A DNA stretch of 64,000 nucleotides, from the NCBI GenBank assembly GCA_942492745.1, contig OW818637.1, positions 1,086,580-1,150,579 of the forward strand, in the 5' to 3' direction. Of the stretch, positions 23,622 to 29,329 are shown piece after piece (the stretch's first letter is position 1; each line of letters opens with the position of its first letter). The translations under genes were made by a program, and so were the position numbers. This DNA comes from an uncultured beta proteobacterium. GTDB lineage: Bacteria; Pseudomonadota; Gammaproteobacteria; Burkholderiales; Gallionellaceae. The notes under the pieces are model-generated. The model was not told the DNA's origin. It saw only the letters and a program-made list of their open reading frames with translations, and searched no databases.

Positions 23622-25079
23622 ATGCATGTCATCACGTACCAGTACGACGCTCTGGGTCGCCGCATTGCGCGCAATCTGGACAACGTCGATACCACCGCCT
23701 ATGACTATGACAAGGCCGGGCGGGTGACCAGCATCAAATTCAACAACGAAGCGCCGGTCCGCTACGAATGGGACGCCGCCAGCCGTCTTACTGTCAAAAC
23801 CCTGTCCAACGGTGTGCGCATGGAATACCAGTACGACGCCGCATCACGCCTGCTCGGGATCACCTATCGTAAACCCGACAACACTGTCATCAACAGCATA
23901 GCCTACGGCTATGACGCCAAAGGCCAGCGCACCAGCAAAACCACCACGCTGCCCAGCCGCGACGAAACCCCGTTCACCGCTACCTACGACGCGGCTGACC
24001 GTATGCTGACCTTCACTCTCACGGGCAGCGGTGAAATCTTCAATTTGGCCTATGACGACAATGGCAACTTGGTCAGCAAGATCAGCCAGTCCACCGGGCA
24101 AACAACCACGTACACCTGGAATACGCGTAGCTGGCTGACTGCAATCACCGGACCGGGCCTTACCGCCAGCTTTGCTTATGACGCGCTGGGCCGACGCATC
24201 GAAAAAACCGTCAATGGACAGAGCGTTGGGTTTCTCTATGATGGTAGTCAGGTTATCGCCGAGCTGGCGGGCAATACGGTCAACGTCAAACTGTTGTCGG
24301 GTATTGCCGTCGATGAAATGCTGGCACGATATACTGCGGCGGCGGCACGACATTACCTGACCGATGCGCTGGGCAGTGTGGTGGCGATGCTGAAGGATGA
24401 CGCGAGCGTGCAGAATTATTATGCATACAGCCCCTATGGCGAGACCACACCATCCGCAAATGATGACGGCAATTCAAGCGTATATACCGGGCGGGAAAAT
24501 GATTTGACGGGGGTTTATTATTATCGTGCGAGGTATTTTGATCCGGTTTTGAAAAGGTTTATTAGTGGGGATCCGATTGGGTTGGTGGGGGGATTGAATT
24601 TCTATACCTATGTAGGGGAAAATCCGGTTAGTTTTGTTGATCCGTTTGGTTTGAGCTACCTTGTGTACAACAATAACTTGCAAAAACTTTATGTCTTGGA
24701 TGGTAGTGGCGACATCATTCAGAAATTCGATGCCGCAAATAATGCACAAACCGGGAGCAGAGGTTCTTGGCCAGAGGGGACATACAATATCGACTACTTC
24801 AGATTTCACAAAGATGACTCACCAAGTAGTAAGTTTGGCTCAAACGGAAACGTAGTGTTTGACCTCCCAGGATGTCGTGGTTGTGGTGTTCATTCTGGCC
24901 ATAGGGATAAAAAAGATAAGGCTGGAAGAAAGGGTTACAAACATGCAACTGATGGTTGTATACGAACAACTGATGATGCGACTTCCTTAATACAACAGCT
25001 TGAGAAAAGTGACGACCCGGTAGAGTCATTAACTGTTATCGATAGGGGAGCAATATGCGATTACTTATTGCCATACTGA
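23622..25079 (+). CDS. Orphan Rhs/YD-repeat C-terminal cassette with a polymorphic toxin tip (L,D-transpeptidase/Tlde1-like)
   Basis: YD repeats run from residue 1 (YQYDALGRRI, YDYDKAGRVT, YGYDAKGQRT, FAYDALGRRIEK). The Rhs core ends YYRARYFDPVLKRFISGDPIGL...NPVSFVDPFGL. A 141-aa tip follows (24654-25076). No N-terminal or PAAR part is present; the frame is closed by a TAG 45 nt upstream. Confidence 0.8.
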   Translation: MHVITYQYDALGRRIARNLDNVDTTAYDYDKAGRVTSIKFNNEAPVRYEWDAASRLTVKTLSNGVRMEYQYDAASRLLGITYRKPDNTVINSIAYGYDAKGQRTSKTTTLPSRDETPFTATYDAADRMLTFTLTGSGEIFNLAYDDNGNLVSKISQSTGQTTTYTWNTRSWLTAITGPGLTASFAYDALGRRIEKTVNGQSVGFLYDGSQVIAELAGNTVNVKLLSGIAVDEMLARYTAAAARHYLTDALGSVVAMLKDDASVQNYYAYSPYGETTPSANDDGNSSVYTGRENDLTGVYYYRARYFDPVLKRFISGDPIGLVGGLNFYTYVGENPVSFVDPFGLSYLVYNNNLQKLYVLDGSGDIIQKFDAANNAQTGSRGSWPEGTYNIDYFRFHKDDSPSSKFGSNGNVVFDLPGCRGCGVHSGHRDKKDKAGRKGYKHATDGCIRTTDDATSLIQQLEKSDDPVESLTVIDRGAICDYLLPY

Positions 25080-25522
25080 TTTTCTCTGTAGGTTTTGCTG
25101 GGCATGCTTTTGCGGCAAGAGTGAAGTCTTGTAGCAGAAATGATGCAATAGAGGCTGAAGGCGAAGCCTCAAAATTAAATCTACAGGACTGGGGTAGTGT
25201 TTACAAATCATTTAAGCGGTTTGCACAATGCGATGATGCGTCAATTGGCGAAGGATACAGTGAGGTAATCGTTGAGTTGCTAGTGAACGACTGGAAGTCA
25301 ATTGACGAACTGAATAAGCCAGCATCGAAGGATAAGCGCTTCAAACGATTTGTTCTTCACCATGTTGATGAGCTTATGAGCCCAGAGGAGGCTCAACAAA
25401 TATATGAGAACGTGCGAACACGTTGCCCAACCAAACTAAATAAACTATGTAAGCTCATTGAAAATGAACTGGATAAAACCCCGACGGGTGATGTTTCCAC
25501 CCGCGTAAGGCGTACCCCGTAA
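25055..25522 (+). CDS. Candidate cognate immunity protein (exported)
   Basis: 155-aa ORF overlapping the Rhs stop by 25 nt. It has a signal peptide MRLLIAILIFSVGFAGHAFA. This position is typical for Rhs immunity genes. I recognise no family. Confidence 0.45.
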   Translation: MRLLIAILIFSVGFAGHAFAARVKSCSRNDAIEAEGEASKLNLQDWGSVYKSFKRFAQCDDASIGEGYSEVIVELLVNDWKSIDELNKPASKDKRFKRFVLHHVDELMSPEEAQQIYENVRTRCPTKLNKLCKLIENELDKTPTGDVSTRVRRTP

Positions 25523-25562
25523 GCGAGCGTAGCCTGGGCTAACGTAGATACCGTCTTTAAAG

Positions 25563-26549
25563 TCAAGCATTTTTCAGGTAATCGTGTTGATACGGCTGTT
25601 GAGTTTTGAGTACGCCAAAGCACAAATGCACCAGCTTGCGCATTGCGGCACCGAGGGAGGACATCTTGGACTTGCCTCGGGCAAGCAGGCGTTCATAAAC
25701 AGCTTTGACGTGTGGGTTGTAGCGTGTTCCCACGACGGCAGCCACATAGAGCACGGCGCGTATTCTGGCGGGGCCGGCCTTGGACATTCGCGCGTGTCCC
25801 AGCACCGAACTACCCGACTGTCGTTCCACCGGAACGAGTCCCAGATAAGCCGCCAACTGTTCAGCTGAACCGAAATCATGGTTGTGCATGACAGAGAGTA
25901 TATTGCTCCCCACCTGCGGGCCAATTGCTGGAATACTCTGGAGCAATGCCCTATCTTTCTGAAGATTCGGATGCTTGTCGATATGTGCATCAATATCCTT
26001 TTGTAGCTGGGCTAACTGTTTGGCTAGAAACCCAATGCTCTCTTCAAGTGATTTATGAATCAGTGTTGGTGTGTCTGTGGCATGGGCTTTCTCCTGGCGA
26101 TTGCGCTCGCGATGTAAATCTTGGGCAATGGCTTCACGGCGGACCAACAACGATTGAAGTACCCGTGCTTCCTGAGGAGGAGGCACCCAAGCTTTAGGTT
26201 TGAGCAATGCGCCATAACGAGCCAGCACAACGCTGTCCACGCCATCGGTCCTGGTGCGCACGGCCAGCCCACGGCCAAAATCTTTAACCTGTGCCGGATT
26301 GATGATGGAAACCATCACGCCAGCATCCGCGAGCGCCATGGCAGCTTGTTCGTGATAGATGCCGGTGGCTTCCATGACGATATGCAATGCTTCTGGGGAA
26401 ACGTTTTGTTTGGCAACCCAAGCCAGCAAATCAACGATGCCTGACTGGGTGTTATTCACTACTTTGGCCTTGCGCTTGCCACTGGCTTCATCCAGCAACA
26501 GGCAACAATCCAATTTGGCTTTTGCCACATCCATACCGAGATAGAACAT
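25563..26549 (-). CDS. IS110-family transposase (DEDD recombinase)
   Basis: The N-terminus is MFYLGMDVAKAKLDCCLL...VMEATGIYHE (DEDD_Tnp_IS110). The C-terminus is LQSIPAIGPQVGSNILS...AAYLGLVPVERQSGSS (Transposase_20). Confidence 0.9.
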   Translation of the reverse strand: MFYLGMDVAKAKLDCCLLLDEASGKRKAKVVNNTQSGIVDLLAWVAKQNVSPEALHIVMEATGIYHEQAAMALADAGVMVSIINPAQVKDFGRGLAVRTRTDGVDSVVLARYGALLKPKAWVPPPQEARVLQSLLVRREAIAQDLHRERNRQEKAHATDTPTLIHKSLEESIGFLAKQLAQLQKDIDAHIDKHPNLQKDRALLQSIPAIGPQVGSNILSVMHNHDFGSAEQLAAYLGLVPVERQSGSSVLGHARMSKAGPARIRAVLYVAAVVGTRYNPHVKAVYERLLARGKSKMSSLGAAMRKLVHLCFGVLKTQQPYQHDYLKNA

Positions 26550-26639
26550 GATGACCTCCTGTTTCAATGTTAGCCAACTTCGCCCACTTGCCTTGTGCAT
26601 GCAGGGTTCACCCCTTGGATACCGTTCAGTGTCTATGCC

Positions 26640-26790
26640 GGCGAAAGGTGAAGCAGAGGGCTTGATCTACGTCACAAGGTCGAGCCTTAAGGTTGGGCTC
26701 AAGCTTCCTCTGCTTCGTGTGATGGTAGCTAACCACCACGGAAAGAAAGATATAAGATACCGTCTTGACTGTCTTCCGAACCGAAATCAG
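26640..26790 (-). ncRNA. Candidate IS110 bridge (seek) RNA region
   Basis: Two stem-loops are visible. The first spans 26650-26716: gaagcagagggcttga pairs with tcaagcTTcctctgcttc, giving a 16-bp stem with a 2-nt bulge. The second spans 26739-26778 (cggaa.ga/tcttccg). The loop of the second contains a 12-nt exact copy (26755-26766) of the sequence at the other IS end (25546-25557). Confidence 0.3.
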
Positions 26791-26879
26791 GCATCGCTGG
26801 TCGCGGTGTTCGATGTGGATAACTGGTCGCCATCCAAATTTGAAGCTGGACAGCGACAACTAAAGGTAATGCACTTGCA

Positions 26880-26909
26880 TTGACATGGTAATGTGATCAC
26901 CTTACCATG
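26880..26909 (+). promoter_or_regulatory. prlF-yhaV promoter with palindromic operator
   Basis: TTGACA (26880-85) is followed by 17 nt and then TACCAT. The promoter overlaps the dyad catggtaa-N10-ttaccatg (26884-26909), 33 nt upstream of the prlF ATG. Confidence 0.35.
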
Positions 26910-26941
26910 CAAGGCATCTACATTTTTGATAGGAGAGCCCC

Positions 26942-27271
26942 ATGCCTGCCACCCTCGAAGTCGAATCCACGCTGACCGACCGCTACCAGACTACGGTACC
27001 AGAGACCGTGCGTCGCGCCCTTCAGCTGGGCAAGCGCGACAAGATTCACTACACGATCCGGTCCAGCGGCGAAGTCGTGCTGACACGCGCCGAAGTTTCC
27101 GAAGGAAATGACCCGGTGCTTGGCCAGTTTCTGAGCTTTTTAGCCCGCGACATCGCCAGCCATCCGGAACGCCTGCAGGTCGTCGATGCTAGCTTTGTGC
27201 AGCATATCCAGTCGCTGGTCGATCGTATCGAAGTTGATCTTGACGCTCCACTTTCGGCAGACGATGAATGA
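26942..27271 (+). CDS. prlF: PrlF/SohA-family (AbrB-fold) antitoxin
   Basis: 109 aa. STLTDRYQTTVPETVRRALQL..DKIHYTI..GEVVLTR is the SpoVT/AbrB-like N-terminus typical of PrlF. It overlaps the YhaV-like gene by 4 nt. Confidence 0.8.
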   Translation: MPATLEVESTLTDRYQTTVPETVRRALQLGKRDKIHYTIRSSGEVVLTRAEVSEGNDPVLGQFLSFLARDIASHPERLQVVDASFVQHIQSLVDRIEVDLDAPLSADDE

Positions 27272-27774
27272 ATGCAAGCAAACCCGCGCCCTTGATCATC
27301 AACGGCTGGACGGTTTTCGCTCACCCCCTATTCTTGGTACAACTTGAAGCATTGGCCCGGCAGGTCGAGGTGTTCAAGCAAAAAGACCCTGTGATGTACG
27401 TGAAGAAGAACGTCAGCAAGCGACTGGCGGCAATCACCAAGTTGGCGTTCGACGCCATCCCGCAGGATCCGACGCGGCCGGAATACCGACAAGGCAACAC
27501 CCTCGGCGACGAACACAAGCACTGGATCCGGGCCAAATTCCTTCAGCAGTACCGACTGTTCTTCCGTTTCCACGCGCCGAGCAAGGTAATCGTGTTCGTC
27601 TGGATCAACGACGAGGATACCAAGCGCGCCTACGAGAGTAGCGACGACGCCTACCGGGTGTTCCGCAAGATGCTGGAAAGCGGCCATCCCCCTGACGACT
27701 GGAACCAATTGGTAGCCGAGGCGCGTGCTGAGGGTCAACGCCTGCAGCAGTTTGCAGCAGGCGTAGCAATGTAA
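27268..27774 (+). CDS. yhaV: YhaV-family toxin (ribonuclease)
   Basis: 168 aa. INGWTVFAHPLFLVQLEAL..., AITKLAFDAIPQDPTRPEYRQGNTLG..HKHWIRAKF.QQYRLFFRF and IVFVWINDEDTKRAY match YhaV toxins. Confidence 0.85.
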   Translation: MNASKPAPLIINGWTVFAHPLFLVQLEALARQVEVFKQKDPVMYVKKNVSKRLAAITKLAFDAIPQDPTRPEYRQGNTLGDEHKHWIRAKFLQQYRLFFRFHAPSKVIVFVWINDEDTKRAYESSDDAYRVFRKMLESGHPPDDWNQLVAEARAEGQRLQQFAAGVAM

Positions 27775-28934: not shown

Positions 28935-29210
28935 ATGTATTACAGCAAGAGCGGGCGGGTGCTGGAAGATGGCCAGGAACTGAAATTCTCATACAAGCCG
29001 GCCGGCGCATGCGCTACAGCTGTGGGGGTGAAATATCAGGTTAGCGGCGAAAACTGGGCACAAAATCAAGCCGGACAAGCCATTACCCGCCCCGGCGTGG
29101 TGGTGGAAACTACCGTCACCGACGCGCTGGGCAATAGCAACACTCAGCGTTTCAACAACGCTGGCCTCGCGACGGAAGCCGTGGACAGCCAGGGCCAGAA
29201 AGCGCGATAG
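28935..29210 (+). pseudogene. Internal Rhs-related fragment
   Basis: 91-aa ORF ending VTDALGNSNTQRFNNAGLATEAVDSQGQKA (YD-type repeat). It is isolated from any Rhs core end. Confidence 0.5.
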
Positions 29211-29329
29211 GTTGGGCTAAATGAAATTAACCCTCAACATCACAGATTGCGGATAAACAGACACGATTAACAACGCCTCAATCGCTAGACGTATTTCATA
29301 CCGAGCAGACAAAACAACGGGGGGTAAAA

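Follow-up and report, generated by a model that had tools for sequence, protein, structure and literature searches.

An IS621-like element of the IS110 family in a Candidatus Nitrotoga lineage, with a predicted bridge RNA in its left end and a host insertion site that resembles its own right-end junction

The IS110 family of insertion sequences includes the IS1111 group, whose seekRNA elements follow the same RNA-guided logic as the rest of the family and encode their RNA downstream of the recombinase. We analyzed an element of this family in a 64,000-nt stretch of DNA, hereafter called the window, from the genome of an uncultured beta proteobacterium of the Gallionellaceae (contig OW818637.1, positions 1,086,580 to 1,150,579); the host genome is one complete 3.29-Mb chromosome. 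In the IS110 family, strands are exchanged at a 2-nt core without a long duplication, and by convention the left guides of a bridge RNA have the sense of the top strand and the right guides are complementary to it, both including the core (PMC11208160). The donor of the closest described relative, IS621 of Escherichia coli, reads ACAGTAT.CT.TGTAT (bioRxiv 10.64898/2026.08.31.748434). In IS621, the target-loop handshake bases are A81/U82, and they pair with AT at donor positions 6-7 once the strands have been exchanged; recombination is blocked if they pair with the target before exchange (PMC11208158). A single half-site, be it left donor (LD), right donor (RD), left target (LT), or right target (RT), is enough for IS621 recombination in vitro; LD-only and RD-only sites make up about half of the non-target IS621 insertions in E. 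coli, and LD-only sites are a recurrent off-target class (bioRxiv 10.64898/2026.08.31.748434). For ISPpu10 of Pseudomonas putida, a dual-match, "structure-gated" targeting of repetitive extragenic palindromic (REP) hairpins has been described (bioRxiv 10.64898/2026.03.19.712850).

The locus in the window is very probably an IS621-like IS110-family element, lying on the minus strand at 25544-26756 and carrying a bridge RNA in its left end. Like IS621, it has the RNA upstream of the recombinase gene, with a 5' stem-loop as well as target and donor loops; a CT core and a right target that starts with AC (the IS621 target is ATCAGGC-CT-AC); a nearly identical donor (ACGGTAT.CT.TGTAT); a target-loop handshake AU and a donor-loop handshake starting with G; and REP-type repeats as targets. 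It differs from IS621 in its target, GCCCAAC-CT-ACGT, which is read by a naturally longer right target guide of 6 nt, in its diverged protein, in its host (Candidatus Nitrotoga, Gallionellaceae), and in the non-canonical, donor-like site that the window copy occupies. As for ISPpu10, most canonical insertions follow directly on the 3' side of a DNA hairpin, the left target being its 3' arm; in contrast, the ISPpu10 RNA reportedly lacks the 5' stem-loop that is present here, and the site of the window copy has no such hairpin. The RNA lies upstream of the recombinase gene, as in the IS110 group and unlike in the IS1111 group. Among public sequences, the element's closest relatives come from Candidatus Nitrotoga and other Gallionellaceae. 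It is a further member of the known IS110/IS621 class, in a nitrite-oxidizing betaproteobacterial lineage, and for the annotation of this genome an ordinary insertion sequence. A preliminary description of the window, made from the sequence alone, had already assigned the element to the IS110 family and placed a bridge-RNA candidate in the non-coding stretch upstream of the recombinase, and both the class and the location of the RNA agree with our results.

The ends of the element were placed by comparison with other copies. A second full copy in the same genome, 96% identical, aligns precisely to window positions 25544-26756. Twelve further copies from congeners start with CTTGTATC and finish with ...AAGACGGTATCTAC at the same positions (the right end is also written ...GGTATCTAC), and contigs from other strains diverge from the window exactly at 25544 and 26756. 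The AC at 25544-25545 represents the first two bases of the right target and is present at every copy; with a single CT core counted, the element spans 25546-26756. CT is found at both junctions in nearly all listed copies, and there are no copy-specific repeats beyond this core except for pre-existing look-alikes at the window copy and at one other, L060. The junctions thus have the dinucleotide core of the IS110 group without a longer target-site duplication. Because the second copy, the congener copies, and the contig breaks all fix the end at 26756, the non-coding left end measures 207 nt (26550-26756). Alignment of other copies, which the preliminary description had proposed as a check, therefore left the right end where it had been noted and moved the left end about 110 nt further in. 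The non-coding end of about 300 nt described there had included 26757-26870, which is host flank and is 94% conserved in relatives without the element.

The recombinase gene, correctly recognized at the outset as an IS110-family transposase gene situated between two copies of a 12-mer, is intact in the window copy. Its product matches the Pfam domains DEDD_Tnp_IS110 (PF01548; 5.7e-21) and Transposase_20 (PF02371; 2.1e-23), aligns over its full length with the IS621 transposase (PDB 8wt6; E 5.3e-56), and also matches ISCro4 (9t56). Residues D7, E60, D102, D105, and S245 are in register with D11, E60, D102, D105, and S241 of IS621, all five catalytic residues as named in PMC11208158. By Pfam and alignment, the protein has the arrangement of the IS110 group, with a RuvC-like domain of the DEDD type at the N-terminus and a Tnp domain that carries a catalytic serine at the C-terminus.

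Both the minimum-energy fold of the left end and the consensus fold consist of a 5' stem-loop and two internal-loop modules, the structured RNA that lies upstream of the recombinase in the IS110 group. The consensus comes from 19 aligned left ends: two copies from this genome, 15 elements with 69-92% protein identity found in genomes of other Gallionellaceae, of Nitrosomonadales, and of Janthinobacterium, and two elements of E. coli. Fourteen of the 51 consensus pairs are maintained by changes on both sides. Compensatory changes were found in two of the eight pairs of the 5' stem-loop, in the target-binding loop's outer and inner stems, and, in the E. coli homologues, in the donor-binding loop, which is the most conserved section of the left end. 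The target-binding loop is built of outer and inner stems, a large internal loop with the two guides, and an apical hairpin. A covariance model built solely from the 17 sequences outside this genome, a kind of check that had also been suggested beforehand, matched the window at 26567-26740 with 197.8 bits (E 1.5e-60). This was its sole strong match in the window, and in the whole genome it detected the two expected copies and one weak orphan. Left ends of IS110 elements from E. coli share 71-73% DNA identity with the left end described here, whereas the gene has no detectable DNA similarity. Contigs from RNA libraries of related strains span the whole element, including its left end, and stop at its ends. 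The preliminary description had named two strong stem-loops. The first (26650-26716) is as strong as stated and is the target-binding loop; the second (26739-26778) spans the end of the element and folds in the RNA sense with just -7.1 kcal/mol (z +0.5, 138 of 200 shuffles as stable). The 5' stem-loop had been overlooked, as had the donor-binding loop.

The left donor guide is identical in sense to the last seven bases of the right end and the first core base. The segment that holds it is near-invariant in 19 homologues: about half of these, and the consensus, have ACGGUAGC, and the two E. coli copies have diverged further. The corresponding left donor arm is near-identical across the 20 right ends listed, with AAGACGGTAT-CT present in all of them and in remnants of the element with few substitutions at most. 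At the opposite end, CT+TGT of the left end CTTGTATC, found in all other copies, is complementary to ACAAG of the right donor guide. The window copy alone starts with CTTATATC, in which a private G-to-A change at 26753 mismatches its own guide. Apart from this mismatch, the donor guides fit the two ends of the element around the core, as expected of the IS110 group, and we take the pairing as likely from this complementarity and from the analogy with IS621.

The target guides, in contrast to the donor guides, change from copy to copy together with the flanks. The left target guide GCCCAACCU is identical to the left flank and core of the second copy (9/9), of several congener copies, and of REP-type sites in relatives; in the second copy and those congener copies, this flank forms the 3' arm of a hairpin of the REP-like type (...AGCCCAAC-CT). 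Over 24 insertions, guide and left flank agreed at a mean of 7.7 of 9 positions compared with 5.85 when flanks were permuted (0/20,000), and the result was the same with 17 non-redundant guides. At least eight left-guide specificities track the flank, in the form of segment variants GCCCAAC, GCCCACC, TTCGCAC, GTCTGCG, GCGCATC, CTCGCTC, and GCGCTC, and of CCATCAT in an E. coli plasmid copy. The covariation between loop and target that had been proposed as a test is thus present among homologues, and the window copy, with just 4/9 for its own left flank, is an exception to it. Over six contiguous bases, CT+ACGT at the right junction is the complement of the right target guide ACGUAG, which changes with the right flank in several lineages (CAUGUAG with CTACATG, CGAGUAG with CTACTCG). 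Hence, both target guides fit their flanks and covary among orthologues, as in the IS110 group. The AU beside ACGUAG corresponds, by analogy, to the handshake bases A81/U82 of IS621. The preliminary description had correctly given ATCTACGT (26665-26672) as the reverse complement of 25542-25549. The guide role that it suggested for this 8-mer stands, even though it held the match to be not significant on its own: the 8-mer is the right target guide with its handshake bases, and its complementarity to the right-end junction (AT-CT-ACGT) agrees with the prediction of the bridge-RNA model for an integrated copy.

At least three REP-like families in this genome have a 3' foot that equals the canonical target: GTTGGGCTTCATTTCATTCAGCCCAAC-CT-ACCGGGCT, CGCGTGGGCACAAAGACGTGCCCACC-CT-ACATGGCT, and GTTGGGCTTCGCAAGCTCAGCGCCAAC-CT-ACGGTAGCCCAGGCTACGC. 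Near-identical congener elements (93-95%) hold two guide pairs, one in L012, L015, L022, and L032 and the other in L013, L028, and L030. The pair GCCCAACCU/ACGUAG occurs in hairpins of the first and third families, and GCCCACCCU/CAUGUAG in the second. Both target guides thus seem to have been reprogrammed naturally, with little else altered.

When the two ends were joined in silico, TTGACN, a 17-nt spacer, and TATCTT came together in 18 of 19 elements, which we read as the promoter sequence across joined ends that is characteristic of the IS110 group. Judged from its two hexamers, the TTGACT-17-TATCTT promoter of the window copy would exist only with right and left ends joined in a circle, and transcription from it would begin just before the 5' hairpin. 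A linear scan of the minus strand upstream of the RNA detected no sigma-70-type promoter, as expected for a promoter that is formed only when the ends are joined. At the left junction in the chromosome, the flank gives AAGACA at the -35 position (4/6), 17 nt from TATCTT. By homology with IS621, we propose that the ends of the element join as a circle and so create this promoter, from which a bridge RNA of about 175 nt would be expressed along with the DEDD/Ser recombinase. The donor-binding loop would read the joined ends (ACGGUAUC on ...ACGGTAT-CT and ACAAG on CT-TGT...), the target-binding loop would read the insertion site (GCCCAACCU on GCCCAAC-CT and ACGUAG on CT-ACGT), and the handshake bases AU and GC would aid strand exchange at the CT core. 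The canonical target would be the 3' foot of REP-like hairpins.

In the consensus fold, CUUUC at the very edge of the left end pairs with the GGAGG ribosome-binding site of the recombinase gene in 17 of 19 homologues (window 26745-26749 with 26555-26559, minus strand; alignment columns 8-12 and 225-229). If transcripts began upstream of the circle-junction start, e.g., by read-through from the flank, this pairing could hide the translation start.

Several observations speak against this interpretation of the left end. The donor loop and the element ends are nearly invariant, so that the donor guides are without covariation, and the homologues are close to each other, with a mean column identity of 78%. 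A scan of 25300-27100 against Rfam 15 with E up to 10 returned only noise (mir-462, SECIS_4, U1, and mir-33; best E 0.41) and no family at the gathering threshold. The RNA-library contigs are from other strains and are blind to transcription as such, to a discrete transcript, and to its start, end, strand, and level. Finally, the private G-to-A at 26753, in the right donor arm, mismatches the guide of the window copy, which may be impaired by it. Compared with 18 homologues, this copy has one further private substitution, A-to-G at 26639, a donor-loop position that adjoins the outer stem.

Table 1. Features of the element and its insertion site (window coordinates).
Feature	Position	Strand	Remarks
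IS110-family (IS621-like) element, 1.2 kb	25544-26756	-	block common to all other copies
Recombinase gene, 328 aa, start MFYLGMDV	25563-26549	-	GGAGG 7 nt upstream
Bridge RNA (predicted, ~175 nt)	26567-26740	-	covariance-model match end to end
5' stem-loop of bridge RNA	26719-26739	-	-11.5 kcal/mol, z -3.9
Target-binding loop	26650-26716	-	-30.2 kcal/mol, z -4.8, 0/200 shuffles as stable
Donor-binding loop	26580-26644	-	conserved outer stem UCGCC/GGCGA and apical hairpin
Left target guide GCCCAACCU (7 nt + CU reading the core)	26690-26698	-	5' side of first internal loop
Right target guide ACGUAG (26667-26672) and handshake AU (26665-26666)	26665-26672	-	3' side of target loop
Left donor guide ACGGUAUC	26618-26625	-	same sense as right end ACGGTAT-C
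Right donor guide core ACAAG (26592-26596) and donor-loop handshake GC (26590-26591)	26590-26596	-	complementary to CT+TGT
Left donor arm and core at right end (AAGACGGTAT-CT)	25546-25557	-	conserved part of element; first 12-mer copy
Second 12-mer copy: CT core (26755-26756) and 10 nt of host flank (26757-26766)	26755-26766	-	mimics left donor arm
Right target: AC and right half of REP-like repeat (GTTAGCCCAGGCTACGCTCGC)	25522-25545	-	motif also at intact hairpin targets
42-nt flank unit carrying donor-like arm	26757-26798		90-95% identical stretches in G001, G008, G023
-35 hexamer TTGACT, right end	25561-25566	-	overlaps recombinase stop codon
-10 hexamer TATCTT, left end	26747-26752	-	joined-end sequence

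The 12-mer AGATACCGTCTT was reported in the preliminary description as an exact repeat at both ends of the element, and it does occur exactly twice in the window (25546-25557 and 26755-26766; 0.18 matches with up to one mismatch are expected by chance). The second copy has the same sense as the right end, and only its CT core falls within the repeat-defined element. In the orientation of the element, the locus reads flank AAGACGGTAT-CT-left end...right end AAGACGGTAT-CT-AC GTTAGCCCAGG... The flank on the side of the prlF gene (26757-27300, 544 nt) is 94% identical in two congeners, G004 and G022, both without the element. Empty sites in five related genomes (G004, G022, G008, G001, and G023) read ...GACAGTAAAGACGGTAT-C[A/T]-ACGTTAG.CCAGGCTACGC, with the donor-like arm abutting the right half of a REP repeat and the hairpin half absent. 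Intact REP-like repeats elsewhere in the genome form a hairpin, ...CAGCGCCAAC-CT-AC-GGTAGCCCAGGCTACGC, and the right flank in the window is likewise a REP right half without its left half; its GTTAGCCCAGGCTACGCTCGC motif also flanks a copy in L014. Since the flank sequence is present in the empty sites of five related genomes, it predates the insertion. The second 12-mer copy is therefore pre-existing target DNA, and not a guide, a duplication made by the insertion, or the product of a later deletion. We propose that the window copy inserted at a host site that already copied the element's right-end junction and whose exact pre-insertion sequence in this strain we infer to have been AAGACGGTAT-CT-ACGT; four of the five empty sites have a CA core and not CT. 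The left arm of this site equals the left donor arm of the element, and its right arm fits the right target guide.

Most likely, the donor-like site is what erosion has left of the right-end junction of an older copy, one inserted canonically in that REP repeat. We infer this from the relatives' version of the site, in which, by our count, 18 of 21 positions agree with the right end, the GAC of the -35 box among them, and from its context beside the right half of a REP-type target, where an old right-end junction would be found. It is unlikely, but less so than the other alternatives, that the site is a chance look-alike used through half-match tolerance. About 0.4 exact 12-mers would be expected in a 3.3-Mb genome by our own arithmetic, and half-sites are enough in vitro; yet the guide specifies just 8 of the 12 bases and all 12 match, the relatives' likeness extends further than the 12-mer, the site adjoins a REP half, and the genome contains at least eight right-end remnants of 11-292 bp. 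The origin from an older copy has its own difficulty. Over the 80 nt beyond the 12-mer, the flank in the window aligns to the right end with a score of 12, which was equaled by 1484 of 2000 shuffles, as a chance look-alike would predict. A long recognizable remnant in the flank of the window strain was considered and dropped, its local alignment being typical of shuffles.

A second alternative is that the element first inserted canonically in an intact REP-like hairpin, with GCGCCAAC-CT as its expected left flank, and that recombination between the left junction and an upstream scar later deleted the hairpin half. The arrangement in L014, where a right-end remnant lies just upstream of a canonical copy with the same right-flank motif, could be seen as the precursor, and the REP half in the window does lack its left half. 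We consider this sequence of events improbable, as the empty sites of all five relatives already join the donor-like arm to the REP right half. L014 was also tried as an orthologue of the window locus and rejected, since similarity ends 22 nt beyond the right end.

The guide role that the preliminary description gave to the second 12-mer copy, as a loop of the bridge RNA that reads the other end of the element, is highly improbable. The exact identity over 12 nt is genuine and non-chance in a local comparison, and bridge RNAs do have a left donor guide in the sense of the right end. However, the element ends at 26756 in every copy, and 26757-26766 is host DNA that stands in the empty sites of the five relatives and is absent from the RNA. 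The hairpin proposed to present this sequence is no more stable than shuffled sequences and is missing from all other copies, which have different left flanks. The left donor guide proper lies elsewhere, at 26618-26625 in a near-invariant segment, and the circle-junction promoter would start transcription downstream of the 12-mer. Equally improbable is a target-site duplication, for although there is one direct repeat per element end, the right-end 12-mer belongs to the conserved element in all copies and remnants, other copies have no flanking repeats beyond the CT core, the left 12-mer is already in the empty sites, and a 2-nt-core exchange (PMC11208160) is at odds with a long duplication.

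How the bridge RNA may have engaged a donor-like site of this kind can be considered from the two arms. The window copy (4/9) and L060 (3/9) have the worst left-target-guide fits among the 24 left flanks, and both flanks end in CGGTAT-CT. At the window site, the left arm fits the left donor guide (8/8), and the right arm fits the right target guide over its 6 contiguous bases. The site would thus have been used by half-match recognition, through the donor-type left arm and/or the target-type right arm, and probably not through the left target guide. AT at positions 6-7 of the site would pair with the handshake AU, which adds to the points against the reading as a whole, and on account of this pairing, engagement through the donor loop seems likelier than through the target loop. 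The insertion resembles the half-match off-targets of IS621 (LD-only and RT-only) in its donor-type left arm, its guide-fitting right arm, and its position exactly at CT. It differs from them in being a natural chromosomal insertion, whereas those published were obtained in vitro or in engineered E. coli, and in having two matching half-sites that mimic a right-end, excision-type junction. PMC13626964 describes the right-end junction as bound by the complex during excision, and the window copy fits both half-match behavior and mimicry of such a junction.

Tentatively, and with somewhat less than even confidence, we suggest that old right-end scars serve as secondary landing pads for IS110-family elements, the left donor and right target guides reading them jointly, as in the binding of an excision substrate. 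If so, half-match insertion would have a natural chromosomal example in the window copy and perhaps in L060, and the many right-end-only remnants of this genome would be potential homing sites or decoys and not inert debris. L060 (position 993) is in a Gallionellaceae metagenome-assembled genome (VIKH01000095.1); its left flank, GCGCGGTAT-CT, fits the donor arm, and its recombinase gene is truncated.

Bridge recombinases are under development as programmable genome-writing tools, for which natural orthologues with mapped guides and targets are raw material. The lineage described here supplies a small group of nearly identical elements whose left guides have at least eight natural specificities. 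It also has a right target guide that is longer by nature and, within one genus, two guide pairs directed at two different REP-type repeats. The window copy, whose left flank copies the donor arm and disregards the left target guide, is a natural case of the off-target class that limits the specificity of such tools. It suggests that half-match off-target events occur in the wild at scars of earlier copies.

The element remnants in this genome (L003-L010; G000:C1, at about 992000, 1668200, 1771700, 1783300, 1784700, 2004721, 2998100, and 3069200) all retain the right end (...ACGGTATCTAC) with a REP tail (CGNGCT) behind it, and blastn found no left-end-only remnants in the same genome. Site-specific deletion by the recombinase was examined as their origin through their inner edges and rejected; the edges are heterogeneous, with no common motif and no shared CT breakpoint. 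One conserved flank, ...GCTATTGAAGCATATAATGCG, adjoins a full copy in G011, a copy that starts at element position 294 in G018, 301 in G007, or 415 in G034, and just 136 bp of the element in this genome. The pattern suggests repeated erosion from the left side. In Candidatus Nitrotoga sp. CP45 (L014/L041), a canonically inserted full copy is preceded, 20 nt upstream of its left junction, by the right-end remnant GAGACGGTATCTAC; the right flank of this full copy has the TAGCCCAGGCTACGC motif, as at the window copy. An unoccupied near-cognate site, GCCCAACCTAT, lies behind a hairpin at window positions 29207-29217 (minus strand), 2.4 kb from the element.

The orphan match of the covariance model (G000:C1:1242675-1242802, minus strand; 23.6 bits, E 2.6e-4) has a 5' hairpin and a UUACCCACCUUAAGG loop. 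No recombinase was matched by tblastn near that coordinate, and the orphan is probably the decayed left end of a related element. A bridge-RNA-like stretch about 73% identical to the left end was present in 206 E. coli records, mostly plasmids (about 200). It is unannotated in nine of the ten records listed and adjoins a truncated IS110-family transposase gene in L092 and L093; for pUMNF18_87, loop and left flank agree, with CCCCAUCAUCU in the former and CCCCCATCAT-CT in the latter.

The element in the window is neighbored by a gene for an RHS-repeat/YkuD-domain protein with a small downstream open reading frame (23622-25522) and, on the other side, by a prlF-yhaV toxin-antitoxin pair (26942-27774). 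In congeners, the prlF side is conserved and the RHS side is not, which puts the insertion at the border of a variable region.

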